Assembly: GCA_963799775.1 (NCBI GenBank)
Contig: CAWCYD010000002.1
Span: 96,001-160,000 of the forward strand
Length of the DNA stretch: 64,000 bases
From: an uncultured archaeon
GTDB taxonomy: Archaea > Thermoproteota > Nitrososphaeria > Nitrososphaerales > Gagatemarchaeaceae
Direction of reading: 5' to 3'
The translations under genes and the position numbers were made by a program. Every line of letters begins with the position of its first letter. Position 1 is the first letter of the stretch. The notes beneath the pieces are model-generated. The model was not told the DNA's origin, searched no databases, and worked only from the letters and a program-made list of their open reading frames with translations. Shown here one piece after another: positions 1-27,539 of this stretch.

Positions 1-842
1 GCCCATCTGGAACAGGAATTACGTAGACCACGTCCAGATCACGGCCGCGGAGACAGTCGGGATAGAGAGCCGGGGGGGCTACTACGAGCAGGCCGGCGTG
101 ATCCGGGACATGGTCCAGAGCCACGTCCTCCAGCTCGTATGCCTCACAGCCATGGAGCCGCCGACCGCTTTCAACGAGACCGCGATCCGGGACGAGAAGG
201 TCAAGGTCCATCGACGCCGTCCGCAAGCCGCGCCCTGCAGACGTGGTCTGGGGGCAATACGACGGCTACAGGTCCGAGTCCTACGTCGCCAAGGACTCCG
301 AGGTCCCTACCTTCGCGGCCCTCAAGCTCTACATCGACAACTGGAGGTGGGACGGTGTCCCGTTCTACCTCAGGACGGGCAAGAGGCTCGCGCGAAAGGA
401 CACCGAGATAGTCCTGAAGTTCAAGAGGATACCTCTGCTGCTCTTCCCGAAGGACAAGGATACCAGCCCCAACAAGCTCTCCCTCTCGATCCAGCCCAAC
501 GAGGGGCTGCACCTGCGTTTGAAGGTCAAGGCGCCCGGGCTAGGGATGAAGACGTCGCCTGCGGACATGGTCTTCCACTACAAGAGGTTCGGTGAGAACG
601 TCATACCCGAGGCATACGAGCCGCTGCTGCTGGACGCCATGCACGGGGATGCGACCCTCTTCGCCAGGGAGGACGAGGTGGAGACCGCCTGGTCGGTCGT
701 GGACCCGCTCCTGAAGCCGCGACAGAACGGGGAGGCGGTCCCGAGGATGCGCATCTACAAGCCGGGCTCTTGGGGGCCCGATGCCGCCGACAGGCTCATA
801 CAGGCCGACGGCCGCTCGTGGGAGCTCAGCGAATCGCCGTAG
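1..842 (+). CDS. zwf: Glucose-6-phosphate 1-dehydrogenase, C-terminal part (5' end outside window; frameshift near 205-240)
   Basis: [45 protein letters not shown] from base 2, then [45 protein letters not shown] and YKPGSWGP in the 243..842 frame. Confidence 0.95.
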
Positions 843-855
843 TCGAGTCCAGGAT

Positions 856-1524
856 TCAGGTCTCTGCTATCACAGTGCACGGCACACTGTCCACGCCGTC
901 CACGAACATGGGGGCCACGATGACCCTCCTCACGTCGTGAGGGTATCGGGCCAGGTGCATGTCCTCGACGATGAAGAAGTCCCTCCCGGTCAGCAGCTTC
1001 CTGTGGGAGCCTCGTCCCTCCTCCCTGTGAACGACGGAGCTGAGTGAGATGGCGTCGAGGCCCAGCGCCTTGAGCCCCCGGAAACGAGTCAGATAGCTCG
1101 CGGCATCGACGGAGAACCCCGGGTTCTGGGTCGAGAACTTCTTCGGGTCGGAGCTCCGGTAGCGCTCGAATCCGGTCCTTACGAGGAGCATGTCGCTCTT
1201 GCCTATCTCTTCCTCGAACCTTTCCAGGTCGCCGGGGAGGACGAGCTCCCCCTCGGCCTTTGGGACGTCAACCAGCAGGGGAGAGTCGAAGACAAGGTCC
1301 TCGGGGGAATACGACGCGATGGGCCTTCCTGCCTCGCTGAAGTGTCTGGGCGCGTCGATGTGGGTCCCAAGGTGGCAGGGCAGGGATATCCAGTAGTTGT
1401 TGCTGCTCCCACCCGTCGCGATCTCCTTGATCGCGTTGATCCGCATGCCCTCGCCCCCAGCGAAGGCGGGCGTGGATGTGCTGAGATGATGAGAGAGCAG
1501 CGTCAGCATGTCCGCAGGGCTCAT
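856..1524 (-). CDS. Cyclase-family (kynurenine formamidase-like) metal hydrolase
   Basis: HLGTHIDAPRHF motif (HxGTHxDxPxH), LLVRTG, GLDAIS, IVED. Confidence 0.85.
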   Translation of the reverse strand: MSPADMLTLLSHHLSTSTPAFAGGEGMRINAIKEIATGGSSNNYWISLPCHLGTHIDAPRHFSEAGRPIASYSPEDLVFDSPLLVDVPKAEGELVLPGDLERFEEEIGKSDMLLVRTGFERYRSSDPKKFSTQNPGFSVDAASYLTRFRGLKALGLDAISLSSVVHREEGRGSHRKLLTGRDFFIVEDMHLARYPHDVRRVIVAPMFVDGVDSVPCTVIAET

Positions 1525-1576
1525 GTCTCCTCCTCATAGATAAGACGATTGACCCGCAGACGCTTGATGCGGCGCG

Positions 1577-3397
1577 CTATCGAGCGCCTTCGGACGACGG
1601 GTTCTGGGTCGGGCGACCCACCGCCGGCATCGCCGTAAGCTCAGGCGTCTCCTGCGGCAGCGCTCCCTTGATGCGCAGCTTCGAGTAAAGGCGGCTGACA
1701 TAGTCGTCCACCATCCGGTAGCAACTGAAGTTGGGGCCGATGGTCGCGATGCTCCGTTTGGCGATCGTCCACCATTCGTCCTTGTTCTGGTAGTAGAGGG
1801 GCAAAATCTGGGACGACAGCTTGTCATAGACGTCCTGCGCGTCCTCCGACTCTGACGAGACGGTCGAGATGTCGTGCCACCCCGACCTCTTCCCTATGCA
1901 CCAGCCGTTCACGCCGTCGATCCCTGCCTCCAGCCACCAACCGTCCTGAGAGCTGAGGTTCAAGACCCCGTTAATCGCCGCCTTCATCCCGCTCGTCCCG
2001 CACGCCTCGAGGGGCCTCCTCGGGCTGTTGAGCCAGACGTCGCACCCTGCGACCAGGGCCCTCGCAGTGTCGATGTCATAGTCCTCGAGGTAGACGAGCC
2101 TCACGTCTGGCGACGCCTTCTCCAACTGCTCCCCCTTGTCCAGGATGTCTCTCAGCATCCCCTTGCCGACGTCATCGGCAGGGTGGGTCTTCCCGGAGAA
2201 GATCAGCTGGATCTTGCCGTGCCTGCTCGCTAGCTCGATCAGCCTCTCGGGGTTCCTCAAGATTAGATTGTTGCTCTTGTAGGCGGTGACCCTCTTCGCT
2301 TGCCCAATGGTCAGCGCGTCCTTCTCGAGCCGTATTCCAGTCCTGTCTCTCACCAGCCCGAGCATCTCTGCCTTGGCTGCTTGGTGTGCGCTCGCGAGCT
2401 CTTCGGAGGGCAGAGTGAGCGCCCCGCCCAGGAGCGATGGGCTCTCTTCCCATCCAGGGGTGTGCCTGTCGTATACCCTCCTCAGCTCGGCGTGGACCCA
2501 ACGGAGGTGGTTCACCCCGTTGGTCACGTACTCTATCCCCTTGTGGCGCAGTATGCTCTCTGCCACGAACCTGTGCTTCAGGGAGACCGCGTTCGTGAGC
2601 CCGCTGTAATGGAGCGCCAGCCTCGAAAGGTTGATCCTTCCGTCTTCCGCCTCCGAATCCCAGTCCATCCCGTGCGCGCGCTGGAACGCCTGCTTCACCA
2701 TCGCTACAGGGAATATGTCGATTCCGGCCGGGACGGGAGTGTGGGTGGTGAAGACCACCCTCTTCCTCACCTCTTCCCTGGACTTGTGCTCCCTCATCAG
2801 CTCGCTCGAGACAAGCGCCGCATGTCCCTCATGGAGGTGATAGATGTCAACATGATATGCCAGGGCTTTCAGCATCCTGTATCCGCCCACGCCCAACACC
2901 GTCTCCTGCGAGAGGCGATGCCATAGGTCTCCGCCGTAGAGCCTGTCCGTGATCATTCGTCCTTCCTCGTCGTTCTCCGGAAGGTCCGTGTGGAGGAAGA
3001 TCACCGGGACGTCAACCTTTCCTCTTATGACGCTCCCCCACGCGCCGACCCAGACCGTCTTCTCGTTGAGCTCGACGGGCACCTTGCTCTTCAATGGAGA
3101 GAGGAACCTGGCCGGCTCGAAGCTGGCGTCGGAGTCGATCTGCCCAGCGTTCCTGTCGAGTTTCTGTCGCGTGTAGCCCTTCCGATACAAGAGAGAGACG
3201 AAGACAGCCGGGACTCCCTTCTCGGCCAAGGAGAAGGCGTAATCCCCCGCGAGTATCCCTAATCCTCCACTGTAAGTGGGAATCTCGCTTCGAAGGCCTA
3301 TTTCCATCACAAAGTTGGCTACTCTAGTGGGTTCCAGTGGCTTGCACGCATCCGTGTAGGCGCTGAGGAGGCTCGCGCCTTCGTCGTCTTTAAACAT
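1577..3397 (-). CDS. glgP: Alpha-glucan (glycogen/maltodextrin) phosphorylase, GT35
   Basis: PTYSGGLGILAGD, ITDRLYGGD, FTTHTPVPAG, PLP-lysine motif EACGTSGMKAAINGV, DGWWLE. Confidence 0.95.
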   Translation of the reverse strand: MFKDDEGASLLSAYTDACKPLEPTRVANFVMEIGLRSEIPTYSGGLGILAGDYAFSLAEKGVPAVFVSLLYRKGYTRQKLDRNAGQIDSDASFEPARFLSPLKSKVPVELNEKTVWVGAWGSVIRGKVDVPVIFLHTDLPENDEEGRMITDRLYGGDLWHRLSQETVLGVGGYRMLKALAYHVDIYHLHEGHAALVSSELMREHKSREEVRKRVVFTTHTPVPAGIDIFPVAMVKQAFQRAHGMDWDSEAEDGRINLSRLALHYSGLTNAVSLKHRFVAESILRHKGIEYVTNGVNHLRWVHAELRRVYDRHTPGWEESPSLLGGALTLPSEELASAHQAAKAEMLGLVRDRTGIRLEKDALTIGQAKRVTAYKSNNLILRNPERLIELASRHGKIQLIFSGKTHPADDVGKGMLRDILDKGEQLEKASPDVRLVYLEDYDIDTARALVAGCDVWLNSPRRPLEACGTSGMKAAINGVLNLSSQDGWWLEAGIDGVNGWCIGKRSGWHDISTVSSESEDAQDVYDKLSSQILPLYYQNKDEWWTIAKRSIATIGPNFSCYRMVDDYVSRLYSKLRIKGALPQETPELTAMPAVGRPTQNPSSEGAR

Positions 3398-3517
3398 GTC
3401 GCTGCATGATTGTTACGAATCCTCTTATCGGGATGGTAAAAATCAGCAAGTAGATTTTCTGTGCTTCGGACGGGGGTTCTCACCCGGTTCGACGGAGACC
3501 CGCACCTCGCGGGACGA

Positions 3518-3796
3518 CTAGCCCTCTTCGACTACGTTCTCCACCGACTGGACCTGGATGACGCTGTATGACCAGATGAGCCCTCTTTCCTTCAGAGACT
3601 TCATGTCAAGGAGCTTGGGCCAGCTGAATCTGAGGTGCTGAGACTGGGAGTGGGGAATCAGGGTCCCGTCCCTCTCCATCCAGTTGAAGAACGTCTCGGC
3701 GGCGCGGACATGGACGATGTAGCGGTACTCGATGTCGGGCTCCTCCGACCCAGCCATCGATTCGACCGAACGTTCGCCGTAATCGTTTTGCTCCAT
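3518..3796 (-). CDS. Small hypothetical protein, paralog of 29562..29825
   Basis: Shares EYRYIVHV, RGLIWSYSVI and terminal EEG with 29562..29825; start taken at ATG 3796, with a TTAAA element ~35 nt upstream. Confidence 0.75.
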   Translation of the reverse strand: MEQNDYGERSVESMAGSEEPDIEYRYIVHVRAAETFFNWMERDGTLIPHSQSQHLRFSWPKLLDMKSLKERGLIWSYSVIQVQSVENVVEEG

Positions 3797-3846
3797 GCAG
3801 CAGAACGACCTGCAAACCATGGAATCTGGCTTTAAGGTTGCCCATG

Positions 3847-3953
3847 ATTCTACTAGAATGGCATCTGGAGGCGAGAACGATGCCCGCGCCGTTAACAATC
3901 TTCTAGAACTGTCCATCAAGGATTTTTATTCCGCGCAGAGCGAAATTTTGCTC
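3847..3953. promoter_or_regulatory. Palindromes in the divergent intergenic region upstream of the tre/glg operon
   Basis: ATTCTA-C-TAGAAT (3847-3859), TTCTAGAA (3901-3908) and near-perfect GAGCGAAATTTTGCTC (3938-3953), flanking a TTTTTATT element. Confidence 0.35.
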
Positions 3954-4050
3954 CCATGCCGAGCGGAAATTCTTGGCGCCGCGTCTCTGGCGGGGCGCTA
4001 GACCCCATGCGCAGCGACCGCGGAAGGAAATCCAAGAAGACTGTCGGCGC

Positions 4051-4713
4051 TTGATTCTTCAAGCGGTTCCCTCGACCCAGCTGGTCCCCGACCTAGACCT
4101 GGTCGCGTTCAGGATACTCGTCTTCGCCGTAGTCCTTCTCATAGCCTGGGCCGCGGGGAAGCTCGCGGGGATGCTCCTCGGGAGGCTAGTCGCCCGCACG
4201 GGAGGGGACGCCGTCCTTCGACAGACCGTCGTGGGGCGGGCCCTCCAAAAGTCAGGCTACAACGCCTACTCGCTAGGCAACTCCCTCACAAAGTGGGTGA
4301 TCTACCTCGTAGGCTTCCTCTACGCGCTGGAGACTCTCGACATCGACTTCGTCTCCGGCTCGGTCGCCTCCTTCCTCGCCTACCTTCCCACCCTCGTCGG
4401 GGCGCTCATCATCTTCCTGGTCGGCGTGATAGTCTCGGACTGGGTCGGTGAGCTCATCAAGAAGAGCGGCCCCTCGGAGGTGAGGGACGTGCTCTACCTC
4501 TCCGTCGTGGGGAACAGCGTCAAGGCCATACTCTACTTCGTCACGATAACGATAGTGCTGGGCCGCCTGGGAGTCGACGTGACCATCCTCAACGTCATCG
4601 CCCAAGCCTTCGCGTGGTCGGTGGCGATAGGCGTCGGCGTCGCCTCGGGACTGGTCGTGGGCTGGATTCTCAAGGACAAGGTAAAGAGCTGGCTTTCGAA
4701 CAACCTGTCGTGA
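4051..4713 (+). CDS. Multi-pass membrane protein of the MscS-associated TM-helix (CmpX-like) type, without an MscS cytoplasmic domain
   Basis: Repeated TM hairpins including FLAYLPTLVGALIIFLVGVIVSD and terminal AFAWSVAIGVGVASGLVVGWILKD; TTG start at 4051 assumed. Confidence 0.7.
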   Translation: MILQAVPSTQLVPDLDLVAFRILVFAVVLLIAWAAGKLAGMLLGRLVARTGGDAVLRQTVVGRALQKSGYNAYSLGNSLTKWVIYLVGFLYALETLDIDFVSGSVASFLAYLPTLVGALIIFLVGVIVSDWVGELIKKSGPSEVRDVLYLSVVGNSVKAILYFVTITIVLGRLGVDVTILNVIAQAFAWSVAIGVGVASGLVVGWILKDKVKSWLSNNLS

Positions 4714-4727
4714 GAGGTCGAGACTAG

Positions 4728-7700
4728 TTGGAGGCTTCCCCCTCGGACGAGGCGACGTGGTACAGGGACGCCATCATCTACGAGGTACACGTCAGGGCAT
4801 TCTACGACAGCAACGGCGACGGCCAGGGCGACCTGCCGGGGCTCACCTCGAAGCTTGACTACATCAAGGACCTGGGGGCTACGGCGATCTGGGTGCTCCC
4901 CTTCTATCCCTCGCCCCTGAAGGACGACGGCTACGACATCGCGGACTACACGCAGGTCCATCCTTCTTACGGATCGCTCAAGGACTTTCGGGACTTTCTG
5001 CGGGAGGCCCACAAGAGGGGGATCAAGGTGATAACCGAGCTCGTCCTGAACCACACCTCGGACCAGCACCCCTGGTTCCAGGAGTCGAGGAGGGCGGAGC
5101 CTGGCTCCGACGCCAGAAACCTCTACGTCTGGAGCGCGACCCCAGACAAGTACAAGGAAGCCCGGATAATCTTCAAGGACTTCTGAGAGGTCCAACTGGA
5201 CCTGGGACAGCGAGGCCGGGGCTTACTACTGGCACAGGTTCTACTCCCACCAGCCCGACCTCAACTTCGACAACCCGCGCACCCAGAAGCTGATGCTCGA
5301 GACCGTCGCCCTCTGGCTCCGCATGGGTGTCGACGGCCTCAGGCTGGACGCGGTCCCTTACCTCTACGAGAGGGAAGGGACCAACGGGGAGAACCTCCCG
5401 GAGACGCACGCGTTCCTCAAGAGGCTGAGGGCCTACATCGACGCCAGCTTCGAGAACAGGATGCTCCTCGCCGAGGCCAACCAGTGGCCCACCGAGGCGG
5501 CAGCGTACTTCGGGAACGGGGACGAGTGCCACATGGCCTTCCACTTCCCGCTGATGCCGCGCATGTTCATGGCAATCCAGATGGAGGACCGCTTCCCCGT
5601 CATCGACATCCTCGAGCAGACGCCTCCCATCCCGGAGAACTGCCAGTGGGCCGTCTTCCTGAGGAACCACGACGAGCTGACTCTCGAGATGGTCACGGAC
5701 GAGGAGCGGGACTACATGTATCGCGCCTACGGGCAGGACAAGCAGGCGAGGCTCAACCTCGGCATCCGGAGGCGTCTGGCCCCGCTCCTCGACAACGACA
5801 GGAAGAAGATAGAGCTCATCAACATCCTCCTCTTCACGCTCCAGGGCACTCCCGTCATCTACTACGGGGACGAGATAGGCATGGGCGACAACTACTACCT
5901 GGGAGACAGGAACGGCGTCAGGACGCCAATGCAATGGAGCGCAGACATCAACGCCGGCTTCTCCAAGACGAACCCTCAGAGGCTCTACCTCCCCGTCATC
6001 ATCGAGCCCAAGTACGACTACACCGCAATCAACGTCGAGAACCAGGAGAACGACCCTGCGTCCCTGCTCGTCTGGATGAAGCGACTCATCTCGACCAGGA
6101 AGCACTACAAGGCGTTCGGGAGGGGGAAGGCGGAGTTCTTCTTCCCCGACAACTGGAAGATAATCGTCTACACCAGGACATATGGCGAACAGGTCCTGCT
6201 GGTGGCTGCCAGCCTCTCGAAGCGCGCCCAAGCAGCCGACATCGACCTCTCGAAGTTCGAGGGCTACACGCCCAACGACGTCTTCGGCGGGATCCCCTTC
6301 CCAGACGTCGGAAAGACGCCCTACAGGCTGACCTTCCCGCCCTATGGGTACTTCGTCTTCTCGCTGACAAAGCGCTCGAGCCCCTCTGCGAGCGCACCTG
6401 AGAGGCCCATCCCCGAGCTCGGCGTCCTCAAGAAGGTCGTCGAGGTCTTCAGGGGCAAGGTGCGAGAGAGGCTGGAGAACGAGCTCCTCCCCAGCTACCT
6501 TCCACGAGCCCGCTGGTTCGCTGGCAAGGCCCGCGTGATCGAGAGGACCAGGATCAGGGACACGATCCCGCTCGACGCAGCCCCGGACTCGCCCTTCCCA
6601 CCCACGCTCGCCATCATAGATGTCTACTACGCCGAGGGCCTTCCCGAGGCCTACGTGCTGCCCCTGGCCTACGCCTCGGCAGAGAAGACCGCCGGACTCG
6701 TCGAAGGCAACCCCGCCTCCGTCCTCGCCAGGATAGCGCTGGAGAAGCAGTCCCCCGGGATCATCTATGACGCCATCCTGGACGCCTCATTCCGCGACCA
6801 GCTGCTCGCAACGATAGCGAAGAGGAGGAGCGCGAGAGGGACGCTCGGCGAACTCGCTGGGGCCCCCCGGCCCGCCCTGAATTCCGTTGGCCTCGACGGG
6901 CTGACCTCCCAGCTCCTGGGTGCCCAGCAGAGCAACACGTCTGTCGCCTACGCCGACAAGCTGATACTGAAGCTTTTCAGGAGGGTCGAAGAAGGGATCA
7001 ACCCCGAGGTGGAGATCGGCGACTACCTCACGAAGCAGTTCTTCCCGGCCACGCCCGCCCTCTACGGAGAGCTGCAGTATCGCCAGCCAGGCTCAGAACC
7101 CGCCACGCTCGCTGTGCTCCAGGAGCAGGTCAGGAACGAGGGGGACGCCTGGTCCCTGTTCACGACGGAGTATGCGAACTTTCTGGAAAGAGCCGTCTCG
7201 TACAAGGGGGAGAACATCCCCGAAATCGAGCGAGCAGGCAAGCCAGGCCCGCGATGGGCCCCCTGGACGGACACGTCAGCGGCCCTCAACGAGCTCGTGG
7301 GCCGTCCTTTCCTCGAGAAGGTCGCGCTCCTCGGCACCCGGACGGCCCAGTTCCACTTGGCTCTCGCCAAAGACACGGACGACGACGCGTTCAGGCCTGA
7401 GCCCTTCACCCAGCTCTACCAGGTCGCGCTGTCTCAGTCGATGATCAGCTACGCTAATCGGGTTCTCCGCCTCGTCGCAGCTCACCGGCCTCCAAATGCG
7501 ACGACCAAGGCCATGCTCGACCAGATCCTCTCGAACCAGGGTGTCCTCATGAGCCACTTCACGAAGCTGAGGCAGACGAAGATCGACGGGCTGCGGATAC
7601 GCATCCACGGGGACTACCACCTCGGCCAGGTGCTCCACACGGGGAAGGACTTTGATATCATCGACTTCGAGGGGGAACCCGCGCGCTCGATGACGGACAG

Positions 7701-8154
7701 GAAGATCAAGCGGTCGCCGATGAAGGACGTGACGAGCATGATCAGGTCCTTCCACTACGCGGCCTACTTCAACCTCCTCGGGCAAGGGTCGAAGACCGTC
7801 GTAAGGGGAGTCACCAACCCAGAGGTTTGGGCGGAGGCCTGGTACGAGAGCGTCTCCTCGGCCTTTATGAGGTCATATCTCGCGTCGTTGCCCGACACGA
7901 TCCTCTACCCCAAGGACCAGGCCGCCTTCGAGACGCTCTTCGACGCATACCTGCTCGAGAAGGCCATCTACGAGCTAAGCTACGAGATGAACAACCGCCC
8001 GAACTGGATGGTCCTTCCTCTCCGAGGGATACTGAGCCTCATCCCGACCCCGTCCTCCGCGTCAGGGACGCCCGCATGGACCCGTCGTCCCGTAGGAGAC
8101 CGGCACGACCCCGAGGCCACTTTATTATGGAAGATTTCTGGGAGACGCCTATAG
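4728..8154 (+). CDS. treS: Trehalose synthase (maltose alpha-D-glucosyltransferase) fused to maltokinase (Pep2/Mak); frameshift near 5184
   Basis: [60 protein letters not shown]; C-terminal [33 protein letters not shown]. An extra T in gac ttc T gag agg tcc explains the split. Confidence 0.95.
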
Positions 8155-8185
8155 GAACGCGGACGACCTCTTGGGGTGATAGACC

Positions 8186-10301: not shown

Positions 10302-10326
10302 GAGAAAAGGAAATCGTGAGCATGTC

Positions 10327-17470: not shown

Positions 17471-17636
17471 CCTCGCACGAAAAATTTCTCACTATTTCGG
17501 GATATTATGGCTTTAAGGACTTTCTTCTAGCCTTCGAGCCTTCCGGGACCGGCCATCCGAGTGAATAGAAGATTGTTCGCCACGCCTATAATCTCCTTCG
17601 ATTCTCGACGGCTTGCATTGGGTCAAGCCGGCTCGA

Positions 17637-19472
17637 TGGCAGCCCAGAGGCGGCAAGGATGGCACCTGCAGACCGGGGCGGGCCTCCACGAAGGGAGAGT
17701 GGAGTTCAGGGTATGGTCTCCTCTCTCGAAGAGAGTCGAGGTCGTCATAGAATCAGGGACCAAGAGCCCAGTCCGGGCCCCGATGAAGAGGAAAGAAGGA
17801 TTTTTCGAAGCCGCCGTGGACCTCGATGCCGGCGCGAGATACATGTATCTGCTCGACGGGGAAAAGAAACGGCCCGACCCCGTGTCGAATGCCCCAGCCG
17901 GCGGGGGTCTTCGGACCTTCGGAAGTGGTCGACCCCGACCTCTTCCAGTGGACTGACCAGAGTTGGAGGGGGACGGCCCAAGATGAACCTCTTGCTCTAT
18001 GAGCTCCACGTGGGCACCTACACGAGGGATGGGAGCCTTCGAGTCCGTCCGTCCTCACCTACGGCAGCTTCGAGAGCTGGGGGTGACCGCGATCGAGCTG
18101 ATGCCCGTCGGGCAGTTTCCGGGCGAGAGGAACTGGGGCTACGACGGCGTCTTCATCTACGCTCCGCAGAACTCGTACGGGGGCCCGAACGGACTGAAGG
18201 CCCTGGTCAACCACTGCCACGAGGAGGGCCTTTCCGTCCTCCTCGACGTAGTCTACAACCACGTCGGACCTGAGGGGAACTGTCTGGCCGACTACGGCCC
18301 CTACTTCTCCTACAAGTACATGCCCCCTGGGGCCCGCCATGAACTACGACGAGCGAGGGTGCGACGCGGTTCGGAGGTTCATCGTCGACAACGCGCTCTA
18401 TTGGGTCACGGAATACCACTTCGATGGACTGCGGCTCGACGCCGTCCACGGGATATTCGATTCTTCGACGACGCACATCCTGGCCGGGGTGGCCGCCGCG
18501 GTAAAAGCCCAAGAATCGAACCTGCAGAGAGAGATCCACGCGATAGCCGAGAGCGACCTGAACGACCCTCGTGTGGTTACGAGCGGGGCTCTTGGAGGCA
18601 ATGACCTCGACGCCCAATGGTCAGATGACTTCCATCACTCTGTTCACGCCTATCTCACCGGAGAGAGGGCCCGATACTACGAAGACTACGGGGACTTGGC
18701 GGACATCGAGAAGGCGTTGAGCGACGGGTTTGTCTACGACCGGAGGTATTCGAGTTATCGTGGAAAGACCTACGGCGCGTCGTCCGTCGGTCTGCCGGGG
18801 AAGAAGTTCGTCGTCTGTTTGCAGAACCACGACCAGGTCGGGAACAGGAGAGACGGAGCACGCCTCGGCACGCTCCTCGGCCCTTCGGAGCTGAGGACGG
18901 CCGTGGGTCTCCTGCTCCTGGCCCCCTACCTCCCTCTCCTCTTCATGGGGGAAGAGTTCGGCGAAGTCGCCCCCTTTCTCTACTTCACGAGCCATCAAGA
19001 CCCCAAGCTGGCTCGCGCAGTCACGGAGGGGAGGAAGAGGGAGTTCGCCTCAGGACCGTCTGACGAGAAGGAGTTCGCAGACCCTCAAGACCGCCAGACG
19101 TTCGAGAGGTCAAAGGTCGACCATTCTCTGCAGAACTCGAAAGAGAACAAGTCGTGGACACGCTACTACTCGGCACTCATCGCGATGAGAAAAGAGCATC
19201 CCGCTCTGCGCAGCCTGGACAAGGAATGCATGCAAGTCCGCAGAATAGGCAGGTCGCTGGGAATGCGCAGATGGGAGCCAGGCGGAGAAGAGGTCGCCGC
19301 GGTCTACTCATTGGGCGATGCGGCGCCGGGGCCCGACGAATTCTTCGACGGCGAATGGAAGCCGATCTTCGATTCCGAAGAGTGGGAGCCACGGGCCGAG
19401 AAGAACGCGGCCACGACCAGAGGTCGCTTCGGTCTGAGGGTATACTGCAAGTCACGTTCAGAGGACGACTGA
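17637..19472 (+). CDS. treZ: Malto-oligosyltrehalose trehalohydrolase; several frameshifts
   Basis: [87 protein letters not shown] spread over successive frames. Confidence 0.93.
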
Positions 19473-19500
19473 GCCGAACGGCCCCGGAGCGTGCCCGTGA

Positions 19501-19922
19501 CTGAGAGCGATCAACTTCGCGATGGTCATTCACAATCACCAGCCTGTCGACAACGACCCCAAAATCATCGAGCTGATCCGGTCCTCGCACCAGGCGGAGG
19601 TGGAAGGGCAGAGCTCAGAGGGTCGTTTGGCGTCGAGGTCAATGTCTCTTCCTTGGGAGACAAGAAGCTCATCAGGACGAACCGGTCCGCGAAAAGACTG
19701 GCAGCGTCCGATACGAAGGCGTTCCAGTATCCTGAGATAGGAACCTCCGTCTCCCTCGAGTTCAGCGGAGCTGCGGAGCTCTTTCAGCTCCCCGTCGTGA
19801 CCGTCTCGCGTTCTGAGGAGGGGTTCCAACAGAACCTGCAGGGCGTCTCAGTCGTGGCACTGTCAGGCCCATTGCTGGGCCGAGAGTCTCATATCGGGGT
19901 CAGACTCTCATGCGGGTGCTAG
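19501..19922 (+). pseudogene. Internally deleted GH57 alpha-amylase/4-alpha-glucanotransferase remnant
   Basis: Starts LRAINFAMVIHNHQPVDN (GH57 N-terminal HxHQP motif), then in another frame the DUF1926-like tail FGVEVN...PVVTVSRSEEGFQQNLQG; only ~420 nt in total. Confidence 0.7.
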
Positions 19923-20035
19923 CTACACAGGGTATTCCTTGAATCGGCCGAGCGCCGCCTTGGAGGCGCCATCCGGCCTGACCCGAAGATCCCTCGAAAC
20001 ACTCTTATCTCGCGTGGGCCGCCTCGTTTGGATGT

Positions 20036-21742
20036 TTGCTCCAGTTGCATCCCACGAGTTTCTCGTTAGGCAAGTATGAGGAACCCGTGGACAAATCACT
20101 ACGAAGCCTCGCAACAGAAGAGACAATCCACCGCATCTGGACACACGACTACTCCGTCTGGAAGTCAGACCCCACCGAGATCAGCGACAGACTGGACTGG
20201 CTTCATACGCCGAGCATGATGCTTCGCCATCTCCCGAGGTTCGCAGAGCTCGTCGACGAAGTCCGGTCAGCGGGCTTCACCGAACTCATGTTGCTGGGGA
20301 TGGGAGGCTCGAGCCTCGCTCCCGCGGTTCTCTCGGAGGTCTTCGGCAACGTGGCCGGATTCCCCCGCCTGAAGGTGCTCGACAACACAGATCCTGACGA
20401 CGTCACCGCGGCCGGCACGGGCCTCGACGTCAGCCGGACCTTGTTCATGGTCTCATCCAAGTCAGGGGGCACTCTGGAGACGCTGTCATTGATGAAATAC
20501 TTCTACGGCCGCGCCCTCGAAACCGTGGGAAACAAGGGCGCGGCTTCTCAATTCCTCGTAATCACCGATCCAGGGAGCAACCTGGCCGCGATCGCCGAGA
20601 GCAATCTCTTCCGTGCGGAGATCCTTAACGACCCGAACATCGGCGGCCGCTACTCCGTGATCTCATACGACGGGCTGGTCCCAGCCGCCCTGATGGGCAT
20701 AGACGTTGAGCGGCTGGCCGGACAGGCCGTGACCATGGCGACCGCATGCGAACCCAGCCTCGAACCACAGAAGAACCCGGGCGCGTATCTGGGGACCGTC
20801 CTGGGCGAGCTCGAAAGACAGGGCAGGAACAAGGTCACCATCTTCCTCTCCAGGAGAATCGCGGGCCTGGGAAGGTGGATCGAGCAGATCATTGCGGAGA
20901 GCACGGGAAAGGACGGCAAGGGCATCGTGCCCGTCGTGGGAGAGCCGCTGGGCCCGGTCGAAGCCTACGGTGACGACAGGCTCTTCGTTGTAATTCAGCT
21001 TGATAGCGACGAAGACGCGGTCGATGAAAGGGCCATCTCCTCGCTAGAGTCCCGAGGGCATCCCGTCATCCGCGTTCGACTCCAGGACGTCTACGAGATC
21101 GGCCAGCAGTTCTTCCTTTGGGAGATGGCCACGGCGGTCGCTGGGAGCATAATGGGAATCAATCCATTCGACCAACCCAACGTCGAGGCCAACAAGAAGG
21201 TATCTCTACGAATGATAGCCGACTACAGGGTCCGTGAGACCATCCCGCGCTTGAACCCCAGCCTGCAGTTGGAGAACGTGACAGTGTACGGGGACGCACG
21301 AGGCGAGAGCCCGGCCAGCGTGCTCATGAACTTCTTGGACGGCGCGTCGCCGGGGGCCTACATAGCGATACAGGCATACATCCATCAGACCGAGCGGACG
21401 GACGTGTCACTGCGACAGCTCCGCGCGGGGCTGATGAGGCGCTTCCGTCTTGCGACCACCGTAGGGTATGGGCCGAGGTTCCTCCACTCCACCGGGCAGC
21501 TCCACAAGGGGGACTCAGGACGAGGGCTGTTCGTCCAGATCACCTCAGACAAGGAGAGCGACCCTCGCGTCCCAGATGAGCTTGGGTCGTCCGTATCGTC
21601 CCTTAGTTTCGCCGTCCTCGAGGAGGCGGAGGCGCTCGGAGACAGGCAGGCGCTCCTTGACAGCGGGCGCCGGGTCATCCGCTTCCACGTCAAGGGAGAC
21701 GTCCCACGCGCCCTTGACGAACTCGCGATGCCGACGGCCTGA
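20036..21742 (+). CDS. pgi: Glucose-6-phosphate isomerase resembling the Pgi half of bacterial Tal-Pgi fusions
   Basis: GMGGSSL, SSKSGGTLET, ITDPGS, IGGRYS, WIEQIIAESTGK, INPFDQPNVE, GPRFLHSTGQLHKG. Confidence 0.92.
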   Translation: MLQLHPTSFSLGKYEEPVDKSLRSLATEETIHRIWTHDYSVWKSDPTEISDRLDWLHTPSMMLRHLPRFAELVDEVRSAGFTELMLLGMGGSSLAPAVLSEVFGNVAGFPRLKVLDNTDPDDVTAAGTGLDVSRTLFMVSSKSGGTLETLSLMKYFYGRALETVGNKGAASQFLVITDPGSNLAAIAESNLFRAEILNDPNIGGRYSVISYDGLVPAALMGIDVERLAGQAVTMATACEPSLEPQKNPGAYLGTVLGELERQGRNKVTIFLSRRIAGLGRWIEQIIAESTGKDGKGIVPVVGEPLGPVEAYGDDRLFVVIQLDSDEDAVDERAISSLESRGHPVIRVRLQDVYEIGQQFFLWEMATAVAGSIMGINPFDQPNVEANKKVSLRMIADYRVRETIPRLNPSLQLENVTVYGDARGESPASVLMNFLDGASPGAYIAIQAYIHQTERTDVSLRQLRAGLMRRFRLATTVGYGPRFLHSTGQLHKGDSGRGLFVQITSDKESDPRVPDELGSSVSSLSFAVLEEAEALGDRQALLDSGRRVIRFHVKGDVPRALDELAMPTA

Positions 21743-21756
21743 AGGTAGAGAGGAAA

Positions 21757-22707
21757 ATGGCAAGAACGAGAGGAGCTCGAACAGAGCTAGGAATCGTGGG
21801 CCTCGGAAGGATGGGCTCGAACATCGCCCGACGGCTCGCCCATGCGGGGCACAATGTCATCGTCTACAACCGCGACCCCAGCAAAGCCCACGCCCTCGCG
21901 AAGGAGTCGACACGCATCTGCTCATCCGACTCGCTCGAGGAACTAGTGCGTCACCTCGCGCCGCCTCGCGTGGTCTGGGTCATGGTCCCCTCAGGCGGAG
22001 CGACGGAGAGGATGGTCGAGAGCCTGAGCCGCCTCCTTTCTCGAGGCGACACGATAATCGACGGGGGGAACTCCCTCTACACCGACACGGTCCGCAGGGC
22101 GGCGAAGGCAAAGAAGGGTGGGAAGAACTTCGTGGACATCGGGACAAGCGGAGGGGTATGGGGTCTGAGGGAGGGATACTGCTTGATGGTCGGTGGAGAG
22201 AAGGAGGCGGTCGAGCGCCTGCGTCCGATCCTCGAGACTTTGGCACCAGGCAAGGACAGGGGATGGGGCTGGGTCGGCCCGAGCGGGGCAGGACACTACG
22301 TCAAGATGGTGCACAACGGGATCGAGTACGGCCTCATGGAGGCGTACGCGGAAGGGTTCGAGATCCTAAGGGGGAAGAAGGAGTTCGACCTCGACCTCCA
22401 TCAGGTCGCCGAGATCTGGCGTGCAGGGAGCGTCGTGAGGTCTTGGCTTCTGGACCTGACGGCCCAGGCTCTGAAGAACGGCCATGGCCTGAGCGACATC
22501 GAAGGCTGGGTCGAGGACTCGGGAGAGGGCAGATGGACCGTCATCGACGCGATCAACCAGGCGATCCCGGCTCCAGTGATAACCCTCGCACTCCAGATGA
22601 GGTTTGCCAGCCGTCAGAAGGAGCGGTTCGCGGACAAGCTCCTCGCCGCTATGCGGAGCGAGTTCGGCGGCCACGAGGTCAGGCGGAAAGGACTGACTAG
22701 CCGCTAG
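21757..22707 (+). CDS. gnd: 6-phosphogluconate dehydrogenase (decarboxylating, short-chain type)
   Basis: GLGRMG, WVMVP, IDGGNS, DIGTSGG, GAGHYVKMVHNGIEYG, DSGEGRWT, FGGH. Confidence 0.95.
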   Translation: MARTRGARTELGIVGLGRMGSNIARRLAHAGHNVIVYNRDPSKAHALAKESTRICSSDSLEELVRHLAPPRVVWVMVPSGGATERMVESLSRLLSRGDTIIDGGNSLYTDTVRRAAKAKKGGKNFVDIGTSGGVWGLREGYCLMVGGEKEAVERLRPILETLAPGKDRGWGWVGPSGAGHYVKMVHNGIEYGLMEAYAEGFEILRGKKEFDLDLHQVAEIWRAGSVVRSWLLDLTAQALKNGHGLSDIEGWVEDSGEGRWTVIDAINQAIPAPVITLALQMRFASRQKERFADKLLAAMRSEFGGHEVRRKGLTSR

Positions 22708-22737
22708 TCTGTATTCGAGAGCATCAGATGTCTCACA

Positions 22738-24223
22738 CTACCATACTTGTCGTCTGGATGACCATCCTCGGCTGACTGGGTCTCCTCCGTCGGCTCCTGG
22801 TAAGGTATCGACTCTACCCTCCATCTCACGATCTGGGTGAGGCAGCTCCTGAGCTCCTCCCCTGTCAGAGAGAGGTTCCTTCGACGGGGAGCTCAATGCG
22901 TCAGCCAGCTCGTGCGATTGCATGACCTCCCTCATCCACTTCTCAAAGTCCCTTCTCCTGGCATGGAACTCGATGGACTCGATGGGAGCCTTCTCCAGAG
23001 CCTCTAGGAACCCACTCGCGGACGACGCCATCAGCCCCGTGTACTGTCCGAAGCTGCTGCAGAAGTAGAAGGCTTTCTCCACAGGAGCTGTGATCGTTCC
23101 AGCCACGACCTCAGCCGGCTTGACCTGAACGTTCGGCCATGTCCTGCTGTCGACCAGCAGCTTGGCGCCATCTCCGACGATAGAACCTGGCCCAACGATG
23201 GACCTGTTCATGAGGACGTTCCGTCCCACTATCGCTGACTGTCCGATGACGCTGTTAATTATCCTGCTCTCTCGGCCGACCTCAGCCCTCTCCATTACCG
23301 CACTCCTTCGAAGGACCGCCCCGCTCAGGACTCGCGCGTCCTTCTTGATGAGGCACCACTCATCGATTGTCGCGTCGTCCTCGATGACGACTCCGGCCTC
23401 AATCAGGGCAGGGCCTGCGATCCTGGCTCCCTTCCCGATGTGAGCTCCTTTCTCGATTATCACGGGGGTGGTGGAACCCATGACAACGTAGTTCTCGGAG
23501 GCCTGCTTCGGCATGCTCTGCAGGGCCCAAGCTACGCCGCGGAGGTATCCATCCAGTCGGCCTATGTCTACCCAAAAAGCATCGGAGACGAATCCTGAGA
23601 TCCTCTTGTGGATCTTCAGAAGATAGGGGAAGAGTTCCATTCGCAAAGTCCCACTTCTCGTGCATGATAAGCTCCACGCACTCTGGGTCGAGGATGTAGA
23701 ATCCGGTGCTGATCAGGTTGCCCTTCGCCTCTCCTCGGGGCGGCTTCTCTTGGAACTCTGTTATCATTCCGTTCGAGTCGACGACAGCAACTCCGAAATC
23801 CCCGGCGTCCTTGACCTCGGTGAGCACAATGGTCGCTGTCGCTTCGCTGCCCTTGTGGAACTCGACGGCCTTCGCAAGAGGCATCTCCGTCAGGGTGTCG
23901 GACTGTGCCACAAGGAATGGTTCGTCGAGCAATCCGTCCACAAGCTTGAGAGACCCGGCAGTCCCACTGCGGAACTCGTCGGGCTTTACCGCGTACGAGA
24001 TTTTCACACCGAATCGGACTCCGTCACCTAGATAGTCCATCAGGTGCTGCTTCATCGGCCCTCCCACAATGACCACGATGTCGTTGAACCCTTCCTTCGC
24101 AAGGTGTGACACAAGGTAGAAGATCGAAGGCTCCGGTCCTACTGGAGTCATCGGTTTCTGTCGCGTGAAGGTCAGTGGCCGTAGCCTCGTTCCTTCCCCA
24201 GCGGCAAGAATGAGCGCTTTCAT
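22738..24223 (-). CDS. NDP-sugar synthase (nucleotidyltransferase + left-handed beta-helix) with a C-terminal DUF5752-like domain; frameshift near 23640
   Basis: LAAGEGTRLRPLT, KPM, GTAGS, FQEKP, FWVDIG, hexapeptide repeats, then KAFYFCSSFGQYTG...SIEFHARRRDFEKW. Confidence 0.85.
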
Positions 24224-24356
24224 GACAAGAATTACAATATGTCAACTGTATACTTAAAATATTTGGAACAATATACGTGAATAATCCTAGTTGGTATTTT
24301 CCAGTAACTCATTATCTTCAAGACGTGTAGGCTGCTACGGTGGCGAGAGAGGGCGC

Positions 24357-26060
24357 CTACGTCGTAGACCGCATGACACCTTTCGAGACCTCGAGAGCCC
24401 TCTCATAGGCTCGAACTGCCATCTCCGCCGCCCTCGGCGCTCCAAATTGCTCTCTCACGCGCCTTCTACAATTCTCTCTGATAATCGAACCGAATGAAGG
24501 ATTGTTTGCGACAAGTTCCCTTATCCCCTCGTCATCGATAGCATCGAGCAAAGACTCGCGTTCACCCGTGCTCATCGTCTTGGGTTCAGCGAGCCGCATC
24601 ATGGCAAGGACTGTGGTCAACCCCCGCGCAAGTGCCAGGGGATTCTCCTTCTCCACGAGCAGCCCAGTTCCCCTCTCCCCGTATGACGCCAAGTCGAGGA
24701 CAGTCTCAGTTATCCCTCCCACCCTGCTCCCCACGACCGGGTTCCCAGTCGCCATCGCTTCGAGGGCGGCGATTCCGAAAGGCTCCCATCGGGACGGCAT
24801 CGCGTAGGCATCCGCGGCGACGTGAGCGAGCCTGTAGATAGATGCGGGGGCATGCCACAGGATCACGCGGACATTGTCAGGAAACCCTGCCGCCAACTCG
24901 TTGGTCGATTCGATTAGCTCTCCGTGTGGCTGCGGGATCATCATCAGGACAAACTTTGCCGTGGGGAGTGCCTCCAGGACTTTGGGGATGGCCTTCATCA
25001 GCACATCGACCCCTTTCTGCTTGTCGAGCCTTCCTGTGGCGATGACTAGCTGGCCGTCCTCTCGAAACGGCTCGAGTTTTCGCCCGCGAGAGGAATTTGG
25101 TGCCGGGCCGTTAGACTTCGGTTCGGGCAGCTTAACCTGCCCCAATCCCACCGTAAGCAGGTATCTCCGCAGGTCACTTCTTCCCTTGAGGGTCGGAGGT
25201 ATCGGCTTTTCCCTCAGGATATCGAGAGTCAGTTGCCTTTCGTCCCATTCGCAGCAGTTGTAGATGAAGCCGCTTTTCTCTCTGGCACCCTCACCCACGA
25301 AAGGGAGAACGTCAGAATTCAGGTAAGACTCGCTCACGGTAGTGAGGAAATCGGACTCGAGCGCGCCAAACCGCTCGATCTTTCCAGTGGAGAGATCCTC
25401 CCAAGCCTGTCTGACCGTGACCGCGCGGGGCCCATCGTCAAGATGTAACGTCTGTTCCTCGTCGCGGACTCCACACCACTCCTCGGAGATGTAGTGCCAG
25501 TCGAACGTCTTGTGGCCTAGAAGATGGATTGTGTAAACGAGCGGCACCTGGGCACCTCTCTCGGAGAACGCCTGACGCATAGACACAGCTGCCGGGATCA
25601 CATTCCAGTCGTGCGCATGAATGAAATCAGGCCTGGTCCCATCAACGCGCTCCGCGAACTGCCTCATCACCCTAGCGAAGAGGCACATCTTTTCGTATGT
25701 CAGATCCTCGCCGTAAATCTCGCTGGCGTCGAGCCATCGACTTGTCTCATCGTCCAGCCCCCTCGCAAGGAAATATCTGACCCCCTCGAACCTCCCTCTA
25801 GAGAGCCCGATCTTGTACGGATACGGCTTCCCATCTGTCCCTCTCCTCGCGCCTTCGCTCCTGAACCCCTCGAATTCCTCGAGGCTGAGCTTCCTCCGGA
25901 TGGAAGGGTCCTTCGTGTCTGCCATGGCTCGGCATGAAGACTGTGACCTGGTACTTCCCGGACAAAGCCTTCGCTAAGTTTGCGACGGCGGGCCCGAGCC
26001 CACCGGCCTGCGCCACGTCCGACGACTCGAAAGACAGCATCCACACCTTTCTCGCCTCCA
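24357..26060 (-). CDS. glgA: Glycogen synthase-like GT-B glycosyltransferase, archaeal type; frameshift near 25925, start approximate
   Basis: KVWMLSFE...AQAGGLG...VFMPSHG, IHAHDW, YTIH, TVSESY, GRLDKQKG, PSRWEPFGIAALEAM. Confidence 0.8.
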
Positions 26061-26198
26061 AACGCTGACGAGGGGTCGTTCGCCCATCCGGAAGTGCTGT
26101 CTTTATTTGCGGGGTCACCTGACCGATTTCACATCTGCTAGGGGCCGGGTCAATTCTTTAGCCTCTGGGATGTTCTTTCTCCTTAAGACTTAAAAGAT

Positions 26199-26615
26199 GT
26201 GACACTTACAAAAACCCTCATGGCTGAAAAGGAAATCTCTACACAAGAGGCGATGCGTCTCCTGGATAAGGTCACTCCCGACAAGGCGTTCCACTTCTAC
26301 ATCGAGATAGGGCGGCCTCTCGGCAAGTCCTCAAGGAGCCTCGAGGAGTTCGCGAACGTTGTCAGCGAAGTCGATGTATCCGTGGTCAGGTTCCACTTGG
26401 GGAGAGGAGATTTTGAGAGCTGGTTCGTCATGCTCGGCGATGACGTCCTGCCAGCCCGCCTTGCGGAACTTCGGACGGCGAACAGCCCCTCAGCAGACGT
26501 CCGGGGAAAGGTGAGCTCCCATGTCAGAACCAGGGTCAGTCAGCTCCATAAGATCGCCAATTCGCGCGACCCCAAGCCTCAGATTTCCACTAGTCGGCGC
26601 TCATCCAGAACGTGA
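26199..26615 (+). CDS. Stand-alone DUF5752-like protein
   Basis: PDKAFHFYIEIGRPLG...SLEEF...SVVRFHLGRGDFESW aligns with the C-terminal domain of the NDP-sugar synthase. Confidence 0.75.
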   Translation: MTLTKTLMAEKEISTQEAMRLLDKVTPDKAFHFYIEIGRPLGKSSRSLEEFANVVSEVDVSVVRFHLGRGDFESWFVMLGDDVLPARLAELRTANSPSADVRGKVSSHVRTRVSQLHKIANSRDPKPQISTSRRSSRT

Positions 26616-26714
26616 AAGGCGGGGCGGTTGGACCAAGCCGGTAGGATGCGCTCGCACTGAAGCGGAGCATTCCCGCTCAAGCTTTTATCGCCCAGGACGG
26701 CTCGTCCGGCTCCA

Positions 26715-27539
26715 TTGCCCGCGAGCATCCATACTGAGAGATATCGCGTCGAGCCAGGGAAGTCAGTCCATCTCGACGAATGGGACCCCAATGACACATC
26801 GGGCTTCGATGGATCCGAGGCGGAGGCAAAAGAAGAATCCGGGAGGCTGACGAAAAAACTCGAGACGCTGCAAGAGATGCTCTACGCCCAGAACGCCCAC
26901 AGCCTCTTGGTCGTCCTCCAGGCGATGGACACGGGCGGCAAGGACGGGACGATCCGTCGTGTGTTCGAGGGAGTGAACCCGCAGGGAGTGAGCGTGGCCA
27001 GTTTCAAGGAACCAACGCCCGAGGAGCTCGCCCATGATTTCCTCTGGAGGGTGGAGAGGAAGGTCCCCGGCAAGGAGAGAGATCGCGATCTTCAACCGCA
27101 GCTACTATGAGGACGTGCTCGCGGTCAGGGTCCACAAGCTCGTCCCCAAGAAGATGTGGAAACAGCATTACGCGGAGATAGTGGACTTCGAACGGAGGCT
27201 GACACAAGAAGGCACGACAATCCTCAAGTTCTACTTGCACATCGACAAAGATGAGCAGAAGAAGCGTCTCGAGGAGAGGCTGGCAGACCCCACAAAAGAA
27301 TGGAAGTTCAGCGAGCATGGACCTGAAGGAAAGGCAGTTCTGGGGCCAGTACATGAAGGCCTACGAGAGCGCCATCGAGAGGACGACAAAGAATTGGGCC
27401 CCCTGGTACATCATCCCGGCGAACCGCCATTGGTTCAGGGACCATCCTTGTCTCGAGCGTCATAGTGAAAACGCTCGAAGATTTCAAGATGAGTTCTCCC
27501 AGGTTGCCGAAGGACCAGCGTTCCATCAAGATCAGATGA
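26715..27539 (+). CDS. ppk2: Polyphosphate kinase 2 (class III-like); several frameshifts
   Basis: LQAMDTGGKDG, NPQG, SFKEPT, HDFLWR, FNRSYYEDVL, KFYLHI, APWYIIPAN. Confidence 0.92.

Follow-up and report, generated by a model that had tools for sequence, protein, structure and literature searches.

An uncultured soil archaeon of the order Nitrososphaerales (GenBank assembly GCA_963799775.1, here termed G000) carries a clustered set of genes predicted to encode the GlgE route of glycogen synthesis from trehalose, together with the genes for the return from glycogen to trehalose. They lie in a 64,000-nucleotide (nt) stretch of contig CAWCYD010000002.1 (positions 96,001 to 160,000, i.e., G000:C2:96001-160000), hereafter called the window, in whose coordinates positions are given. 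Judged from the sequence, the ~28.5 kb block that holds these genes is likely to be a real accessory island, horizontally acquired and inserted in the spacer between a HAD-hydrolase gene and the gene of ribosomal protein uS10, a grade that we mean for the best explanation as a whole, i.e., island, inferred pathway, history and assembly errors taken together. The GlgE route is best known as a mycobacterial drug-target pathway. Here it is extended to an archaeal lineage that includes soil ammonia oxidisers, and it is accompanied by a testable idea, namely that it serves carbon storage and survival of drying in uncultured heterotrophic soil Thaumarchaeota.

Insertion Site of the Island

The G000 assembly consists of 2.47 Mb in three contigs, with a guanine-plus-cytosine (GC) content of 0.588 and an estimated completeness of 81.67%. 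The island covers ~95.2-123.8 kb of contig G000:C2 (window -0.8 to 27.77 kb); its left end lies ~0.8 kb upstream of the window, where the N-terminus of zwf is encoded (G000:C2:95195-96000), and its right end, at ~27765, was set by comparison with the HAD-uS10 spacer of the congener G007. In this one-contig genome the HAD-hydrolase gene and uS10 stand in the same orientation and are separated by 85 bp, against ~28.5 kb in G000. The 1.7 kb of G007 directly upstream of uS10 matches G000:C2:92919-95164, just before the window, and DNA searches of five same-genus genomes revealed a backbone that is collinear from position 27821 (uS10) onward with G007, G009, G011 and G014 at 67-79% identity. Over its first 20 kb the window has almost no match in these five genomes except scattered glycogen genes of G011. 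The right border (~27765) falls within the segment 27466..27815 (no strand), in which comparison with the 85-bp spacer of G007 shows that the promoter-like stretch 5′ of uS10 has been kept, and the archaeal uS10 itself (27816..28127, +; TIGR01046, 133 bits, cut-off 96) is the first gene of the conserved backbone. At the same site G011 holds a different insert of 5.8 kb, with a pyrroloquinoline quinone (PQQ) dehydrogenase and three unknowns. Absence from the same site in relatives, one of the features by which a genomic island is recognised, is thereby seen twice, as an empty spacer in G007 and as a different insert in G011.

The uS10 gene next to the island has a second copy at C3:1284530-1284838, ~12 kb from aEF-2, which is 82.5% identical at the protein level to window 27816-28127; two or three uS10-like DNA matches are found in congeners as well.

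Gene Content

The original prediction, made from the window sequence alone, had named a treS-maltokinase fusion, glgE, glgB, glgX, treY, treZ, glgP, a glycogen synthase with its nucleoside diphosphate (NDP)-sugar gene, pgi, ppk2 and uS10. Pfam and NCBIfam scans of 28 and 27 open reading frames (ORFs) from window 1-29.5 kb recovered all of them, and added zwf, a gnd-type gene (21757-22707), a cyclase-family gene (856-1524) and an MscS-like gene (3973-4713).

The core of the island consists of six genes arranged as two converging units and a following treZ. The rightward unit begins with the treS-maltokinase fusion (4728..8154, +; TIGR02456 positions 2-142 and 180-538; TIGR02457, 456.7 bits, cut-off 375), of which the ORF 5293-8154 contains both domains in one frame (TIGR02456 180-538 and TIGR02457 18-529) and the segment 4728-5186, one frameshift away, contains TreS positions 2-142; the two parts match solved structures in PDB (TreS 5x7u, 4.5e-163; maltokinase 4o7o, 1e-41). 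It is followed by the debranching enzyme gene glgX/treX (8186..10301, +; TIGR02100, 764.2 bits, cut-off 640.9) and by treY for malto-oligosyltrehalose synthase (10327..13200, +), which is intact with 957 amino acids (aa) and scores 865.9 bits against a TIGR02401 cut-off of 498.65. Facing these genes are glgE (13186..15142, -) and glgB, a GH13 branching enzyme gene (15241..17421, -) that is intact with 726 aa (TIGR01515, 937.8 bits, cut-off 463.95). The sixth member, treZ for malto-oligosyltrehalose trehalohydrolase (17659..19472, +), is represented by TIGR02402 positions 212-537 on 18339-19472; its largest fragment reaches 373.1 bits and remains below the cut-off of 538.8, a shortfall explained by the four or more frameshifts that interrupt the gene.

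GlgE carries PF11896 (110 bits, cut-off 25), PF21702 (94.7 bits, cut-off 27) and PF00128 (28 bits), and its residues 3-613 align with the solved GlgE of Streptomyces coelicolor (PDB 4u2y/3zss, ~1e-183). Residues D344, E373 and D431, which we take to be the catalytic nucleophile Asp, the acid/base Glu and the third Asp, respectively, align with residues 394 and 423 and the aspartate of the NTPDIL motif of chain 4u2y and are invariant in 26 aligned relatives. By its domains and catalytic motifs, this protein is a predicted maltose-1-phosphate maltosyltransferase.

The core is embedded among other genes of carbohydrate metabolism. At the left end, zwf (glucose-6-phosphate dehydrogenase; 1..842, +) starts at G000:C2:~95195 and has its C-terminal two thirds in the window, where TIGR00871 positions 199-269 and 297-484 are found on two frames (2-595 and 243-842), G6PD_N lying upstream. 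The intact 606-aa α-glucan phosphorylase (1577..3397, -) belongs to the GT35-like "more_P_ylases" type (TIGR02094, 471 bits, cut-off 191.7). Downstream of treZ come pgi (glucose-6-phosphate isomerase; 20036..21742, +), which matches NF007080 positions 383-941 at 629.7 bits, below the cut-off of 712, and is of a type that some bacteria carry as a fusion with transaldolase, the island having the isomerase part only, and a gnd-like gene for a short-form decarboxylating 6-phosphogluconate dehydrogenase (21757..22707, +; NF007161, 453 bits, cut-off 271). A putative NDP-sugar pyrophosphorylase (22738..24223, -) has its nucleotidyltransferase domain (PF00483, on 23399-24223) and its hexapeptide domains (22738-23646) on two frames. 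The neighbouring glucan synthase (24357..26052, -; PF08323 and PF00534) is of an archaeal (TACK) type, and we call it GlgA-like because it misses the TIGR02095 cut-off (121 bits against 328) and yet resembles archaeal proteins named glycogen/starch synthase as well as the GlgA of Pyrococcus abyssi, its best PDB match (3.8e-15). Near the right border lies ppk2 (polyphosphate kinase 2 family; 26715..27465, +), both fragments of which match TIGR03709.

The remaining ORFs are a putative cyclase-family protein (856..1524, -; PF04199), an MscS-like membrane protein adjoining treS (3973..4713, +; PF05552, NF033912), a small ORF of uncertain status with a weak match to an AmyA/glucanotransferase C-terminus (19491..19922, +; PF09095, 38 bits; no NCBIfam match), and two proteins that match neither Pfam nor NCBIfam, a small hypothetical protein (3518..3919, -) and a hypothetical protein of 138 aa (26199..26615, +). 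The former belongs to a multi-copy family in G000, with 10 tblastn matches outside the island at ~9 places of the genome (35-52% identity). Elsewhere in G000, a second phosphorylase-like and glgX pair is found on C3; a second glgB, treY, treZ, treS, glgE, pgi, zwf, gnd or ppk2 was not found within the genome.

Proposed Pathway

The following pathway logic is taken from family assignments only. Glucan would be made by two routes. In the first, the NDP-sugar pyrophosphorylase would supply NDP-glucose to the archaeal-type GlgA-like synthase. In the second, TreS-Mak would convert trehalose to maltose and on to maltose-1-phosphate, from which GlgE would add maltosyl units to the chain, and GlgB would branch the product of both routes. 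The way back from glucan to trehalose would be opened by GlgX/TreX as debranching enzyme, TreY rearranging the chain end and TreZ releasing trehalose, and breakdown by the phosphorylase would yield glucose-1-phosphate. Thus the two parallel synthesis routes and the closed glucan-trehalose loop that had been predicted are borne out at the level of gene content, as assigned by Pfam and NCBIfam. Pgi, Zwf and Gnd would tie hexose phosphate to gluconeogenesis and to the oxidative pentose-phosphate route, and in the island glycogen genes are coupled to zwf and gnd. The accompanying ppk2 and MscS-like gene may fit a module for storage and for osmotic or desiccation stress; a context of osmotic stress and reserves, read from these two genes, is conjecture.

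Rarity Within the Lineage and Related Clusters

In the counts given here, absence means "not found," and many of the genomes are incomplete. The N/S domain of GlgE, PF11896, was found in none of 40 relatives, including 22 congeners, in two of the 96 other family genomes (G422 and G450) and in one of 400 other sampled genomes of the class. GH13 GlgB (TIGR01515) is present in 16/97 family genomes and zwf (TIGR00871, E ≤1e-30) in 6/97, G000 being included in both figures, and zwf is absent from all 22 congeners. GlgE clusters already widespread and described in the lineage would have spoken against the original prediction; in these counts GlgE was rarely found, and Thaumarchaeota proteins already carry automatic GlgE labels in public records. 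Among the closest GlgE proteins in a large protein collection are entries labelled "Thaumarchaeota archaeon" (identities of 74, 60 and 55%) and "Nitrososphaerales archaeon" (56%), some unnamed proteins of the archaeal GlgE clade being 63-74% identical, and matches from a protein atlas were bacterial GlgE clusters only.

The arrangement of the core recurs in relatives. G422 and G450 have treS-mak, glgX and treY facing glgE-glgB in the orientation seen in the window; treZ follows glgB in G450, and the G422 contig ends at glgB. A scan of species representatives (80 loci) added two "Nitrososphaerales archaeon" loci with the same converging layout and without treY, in one of which (L046) an MscS-like gene stands beside treS, 54% identical to its homologue in the window. 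The rearranged cluster order is therefore shared by four other Nitrososphaerales genomes, and it was not seen in the bacterial loci examined, which mostly have glgE, treS-mak, glgB, glgX, treZ and treY in one direction, those of Omnitrophota running treY, glgB, glgE, treS-mak, treZ. Nor was it seen among at least 80 metagenome loci (≤59% identity), a set that is no gauge of how frequent the archaeal cassette is. The archaeal cluster sequences are deeply diverged (52-68% identity, against 71-83% for aEF-2).

Two side observations concern these relatives. In the L046 contig, which lacks treY, a 652-aa ORF without NCBIfam match (L046:5594-7552, +) lies between treZ and glgB. The congener G011 (C7:180001-220000; L089-L090) holds a classical glycogen cluster without glgE, consisting of GH13 glgB, a glgA-like gene, an NDP-sugar gene, pgi, glgX and two phosphorylase-like genes that are 44-62% identical to the window genes. 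The 138-aa protein of the island (26199-26615) has two homologues there (L089:19293-19676 and L090:16017-16355; 52-55% identity), both adjoining glgP-like genes, and it is possibly an unrecognised partner of archaeal glycogen metabolism.

Gene Trees and the Origin of the Island

Gene trees to find the donor, together with a GlgE search across archaeal genomes, had been suggested with the original prediction. When run, the trees placed archaeal clades beside Omnitrophota. Loci in these trees were chosen by GlgE similarity, which biases the sampling, and the root was not inferred. In a FastTree phylogeny of 202 GlgE rows, all nine archaeal-labelled rows fall in one clade of 72 rows (support 100), the other 63 of which are unnamed. 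A quick maximum-likelihood tree of 102 rows, built with 28 of 119 database rows and without nine locus rows that were long or truncated, confined the nine archaeal rows to a smallest clade of 23 rows without any named bacterium (Shimodaira-Hasegawa-like approximate likelihood ratio test, SH-aLRT, 96); outward from it follow four unnamed rows, an Omnitrophota-dominated group of eight (98), and then Cloacimonadota, Wallbacteria and Elusimicrobia (98). The five genome-anchored archaeal rows form one clade with Omnitrophota as sister group both in the TreS-Mak tree (46 rows; SH-aLRT 100, sister 100) and in the GlgB tree (40 rows; SH-aLRT 99, sister 92). The GlgA-like protein has another kind of kin, its named relatives being mostly archaeal (Thaumarchaeota, Bathyarchaeota, Nitrososphaerales, Thermoprotei, Metallosphaera and Acidianus), with two bacterial names among the 120 listed.

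Because the relatives of the GlgA-like protein are mostly archaeal, we read the island as a mosaic in which archaeal-type genes accompany an old GH13 cassette of bacterial derivation, and not as one bacterial package. The predicted horizontal acquisition is supported as far as the insertion is concerned, given the 85-bp site that is empty in G007 and the lack of GlgE in 22 of 22 congeners searched, and the notion of a bacterial-type acquisition is not supported, as the clade and the gene order are common to Nitrososphaerales. The immediate donor was probably another archaeon, since all named members of the GH13-core clade are Thaumarchaeota or Nitrososphaerales and the gene order is the archaeal one, with an older bacterial origin for which Omnitrophota are the sister group. 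In the history that we propose, the GH13 core (treS-mak, glgX, treY, glgE, glgB and treZ) would have come into Nitrososphaerales in a single uptake from a bacterium close to Omnitrophota, would have been rearranged into the archaeal-specific order, and would later have reached G000, most likely from another archaeon and with archaeal-type genes.

The alternative that survives best is vertical inheritance with massive loss, where the ancestor of the family, or of the order, already had the cluster, nearly all descendants have lost it, and the position in G000 is ancestral or the outcome of an internal move. That the cluster is seen in two genera of this family, and in no fewer than two further Nitrososphaerales genomes, would suit such a history, as would the deep divergence of the archaeal sequences relative to aEF-2, a composition that is fully ameliorated, and the patchiness of GH13 GlgB itself within the family. 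We nevertheless regard it as unlikely, as none of the 22 congeners, including a one-contig genome that is 95% complete, was found to contain GlgE, the empty site of G007 is clean and that of G011 is occupied by something else, and the classical glycogen homologues of G011 are, with their 44-62% identity, below our expectation for same-genus orthologues.

Horizontal acquisition from within the archaea can be carried one step further, as a tentative proposal to which we give somewhat less than an even chance. The non-ammonia-oxidising soil Nitrososphaerales may possess a distinct lineage of the GlgE/TreXYZ cassette, derived from one Omnitrophota-like uptake that was independent of the one in Thermoplasmatales, then rearranged, and now a mobile accessory trehalose-glycogen module under drying and rewetting. 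If true, this would be the first GlgE route in TACK archaea, and all unnamed proteins of the clade (63/72 rows) would be archaeal.

Frameshifts and Assembly Quality

Unless assembly errors are recognised, the window resembles a field of pseudogenes. At least eight of the ~17 island genes are frameshifted by single bases (zwf, treS-mak, glgX, glgE, treZ, the NDP-sugar gene, the glgA-like gene and ppk2), amounting to at least 11 frame disruptions in ~28.5 kb. In treS-mak one single-base frameshift is located near 5176-5186; the frame of glgX breaks at ~8718-8734, with one extra assembly base at ~8718; the first ~22 residues of glgE are in another frame, with the shift near 15080, and likewise the first ~49 residues of the glgA-like gene (shift near 25910); ppk2 has one extra assembly base at 27065. 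Alignment to the TreZ of G450 located at least four single-base shifts in treZ, three at ~17900-18035 and one near 18325.

A base-level check was provided by a public soil-metagenome short-read run, here X1, which holds a fraction of 0.32 of the sampled words of 12000-21999. Contigs of X1 were aligned to window 8101-28100 (98 contigs, 36 of them at least 99% alike), and they omit single bases at 8718, 17984, 18035 and 27065, each at a frame break; these four omissions are all the single-base differences reported for X1. Removal of base 8718 gives an open frame of 705 aa for GlgX, and removal of base 27065 one of 267 aa for Ppk2. The treZ gene stays broken after removal of 17984 and 18035, its further shifts lying outside the piece covered by X1. 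Two other runs (X2 and X3) gave mostly short pieces, 90-95% alike, of conserved GH13 parts, which come from other organisms.

Frame breaks are not limited to the island. Among 41 ORFs scanned outside it, the split is clear for two MFS transporter genes and probable for Amt, PntB and a PMT-like gene (PntB, Amt, the two MFS genes and the PMT-like gene, cut or truncated by frame changes: 41763-43055, 45273-46770, 51485-52989, 55367-56566, 61559-63043). Because these backbone genes are frame-broken too, the whole assembly needs polishing and the completeness of 81.67% is probably an underestimate. We conclude that the island frameshifts are probably assembly errors and hence that the genes are probably intact in the organism, some real decay being possible. 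That the island as a whole is decaying, with real frameshifts and a pathway that no longer functions, appears quite improbable to us: the density of the disruptions, their accumulation in treZ and the restriction of the short-read check to four sites would agree with decay, whereas at all four sites the extra base is absent from X1 and two of the corrections restore full-length ORFs, the backbone shares the defect, and the frames, apart from the shifts, align from end to end with homologues (47-74% identity).

Points Against the Island and the Assembly Question

The account of an acquired island with intact genes has to be held against a number of observations that weigh the other way. A script comparing the borders found no common repeat of 10 nt or more, only one 9-mer, and Pfam and NCBIfam scans detected no integrase or transposase family among the island ORFs; a tRNA at the border was found neither by Rfam nor by ARAGORN. 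Among 84 windows of the same size, the tetranucleotide distance of the island ranks at the 70th percentile, which is ordinary, so the usual hallmarks of recent foreign DNA are absent (GC is ~0.61 in the island against 0.588 in the genome). Thus neither deviant composition nor a mobility gene, repeat or tRNA target, by which genomic islands are also recognised, marks this one. Neither a read nor a contig was seen to cross a border: no listed piece of runs X1, X2 or X3 does so, and those of X1 (8 of 98 contigs) are at most 631 nt long. The X1 run may stem from the sample that yielded the assembly and is then not independent evidence for the organism, though it is still fair to use it as a base-level error check; the shifts in zwf, treS-mak, glgE, the NDP-sugar gene and the glgA-like gene, and two of the four in treZ, are outside the short-read cover. 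On the side of the pathway, phosphoglucomutase and 6-phosphogluconolactonase were not seen in the island, and the synthesis route through the NDP-sugar and GlgA-like proteins is the more weakly assigned one because both proteins are below the curated NCBIfam cut-offs, the NDP-sugar protein reaching none. As for the history, most GlgE rows of the archaeal clade are unnamed metagenome proteins, and inside this clade the GlgE tree does not branch in the same order as the trees of TreS-Mak and GlgB, for which reason we infer an archaeal donor and name no particular one.

An assembly chimera, in which a bacterial GlgE-cluster fragment was wrongly joined into an archaeal long-read contig, could be suspected from an error-rich assembly with many single-base indels and a completeness of 81.67% despite only three contigs, from the missing border-spanning sequence and from the absence of GlgE in all 22 congeners searched, and it is the least probable of the alternatives, very unlikely indeed, because, with both flanks collinear with congeners and adjacent to each other in G007, 85 bp apart and in the same orientation, it would demand two false joins at adjacent points, and, further, the island equals the rest of the genome in composition, agrees in core gene order and tree position with four other Nitrososphaerales assemblies and not with bacterial loci, and holds an archaeal-type GlgA-like gene and a member of a small-protein family with ~9 further copies in G000.

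Host

The host belongs to the Nitrososphaerales, the order given in NCBI titles, and is a non-ammonia-oxidising archaeon of soil. Its aEF-2 is 83% identical to that of G007, 80% to those of G422 and G450, which belong to another genus of the same family, and 71% to that of G492. Archaeal amoA was not found in G000, G007 and G422, and it was found in three of three control genomes from another family of the same order. Genes of the Pnt type lie at window 40079-43055, and the GC content, the soil origin, the lack of amoA and the Pnt genes of G000 fit the Gagatemarchaeaceae as reported in the accessible part of PMC10640624. In the same portion of this paper, the resembling family is said to be without phosphofructokinase and perhaps to use a pentose-phosphate route.

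Phosphoglycerate kinase was dropped as a species marker in favour of aEF-2. The copy in the window (46880-48136, +) is ~30% identical to the phosphoglycerate kinases of five related genomes, a congener among them, and from its sequence would be a divergent or foreign copy; cross-domain transfer of this gene in Nitrososphaerales is mentioned in the review PMC12525153, as far as its accessible text goes.

Comparison with Known Systems

The original prediction had set the GlgE route, characterised in bacteria, against an archaeal glucan metabolism mostly described as GlgA/GH57 plus TreXYZ; in archaea the route is already in print for Picrophilus, Acidiplasma and Cuniculiplasma (PMC6355812 and PMC11046441, in the excerpts available). 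According to the same excerpts of the Chem Rev 2024 review (PMC11046441), only a few Euryarchaeota use it, and the available text of reviews lists only nucleotide-sugar glycogen synthesis for the lineage that includes the soil ammonia oxidisers. A GlgE route in Thaumarchaeota was not described in the full-text literature searched, supplements aside, which included the accessible parts of PMC12525153 and PMC10640624. The G000 island is accordingly a new archaeal case of a known pathway, in a lineage without prior discussion of it, and not the first archaeal GlgE route.

Compared with the TreS-Pep2(Mak)-GlgE-GlgB pathway of Mycobacterium and Streptomyces ("non-classical pathway I"), all four activities appear to be encoded in the island, whose GlgE aligns end to end with that of S. 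coelicolor with the catalytic motif residues kept, and whose TreS and maltokinase match the solved mycobacterial proteins. The fusion of TreS and Mak is found in many of the bacterial loci fetched, to which the island sequences are ~50% identical. What differs is the archaeal host and the arrangement, treS-mak, glgX and treY facing glgE-glgB. The acid-loving Thermoplasmatales (Picrophilus, Acidiplasma, Cuniculiplasma) are likewise archaea with TreS, maltokinase, GlgE and GlgB, according to the text available on them, and they differ in phylum, being Thermoplasmatota, whereas G000 belongs to the TACK/Nitrososphaerales side. With the TreX-TreY-TreZ system of Sulfolobales the island has in common that debranching enzyme, TreY and TreZ are encoded together beside glycogen genes; here, however, the trio travels with GlgE, TreS-Mak and GH13 GlgB, and its relatives in the fetched loci belong to bacterial GlgE clusters.

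In Alphaproteobacteria the same six genes stand together as glgE-treS(mak)-glgB-glgX-treZ-treY operons. The clusters of Omnitrophota, which three gene trees place as the sister group, run treY-glgB-glgE-treS-mak-treZ and, like the island, have glgB next to glgE. Unlike both, the archaeal version is made of two converging units, and in G000 the cassette is surrounded by archaeal-type GlgA, phosphorylase, pentose-phosphate genes and ppk2.

Transfer RNA Genes and Other Observations

One copy of the small-protein family represented by 3518-3919 is situated just past the island (~window 29565-29801).

The bulge-helix-bulge (BHB)-intron tRNAs that the original prediction had read from the contig are reduced to one that is called by a tool and one that was read by eye only. 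The former is a tRNA-Pro(GGG) with an 18-nt intron at c[59901,59996], which was called by Rfam and by ARAGORN with the intron option only, the default mode of ARAGORN finding no tRNA. The latter is a tRNA-Ser-like gene at ~32497-32656 (-), called neither by Rfam nor by ARAGORN, in which an acceptor 5′ strand, an arm with UGA anticodon (Ser), a long variable arm and a T arm are followed, ~48 nt further on, by a matching acceptor 3′ strand and CCA. Read in this way, the gene would be interrupted twice, by an intron in the D region and by another that follows the T arm. Its core is 77-95% identical in congeners.

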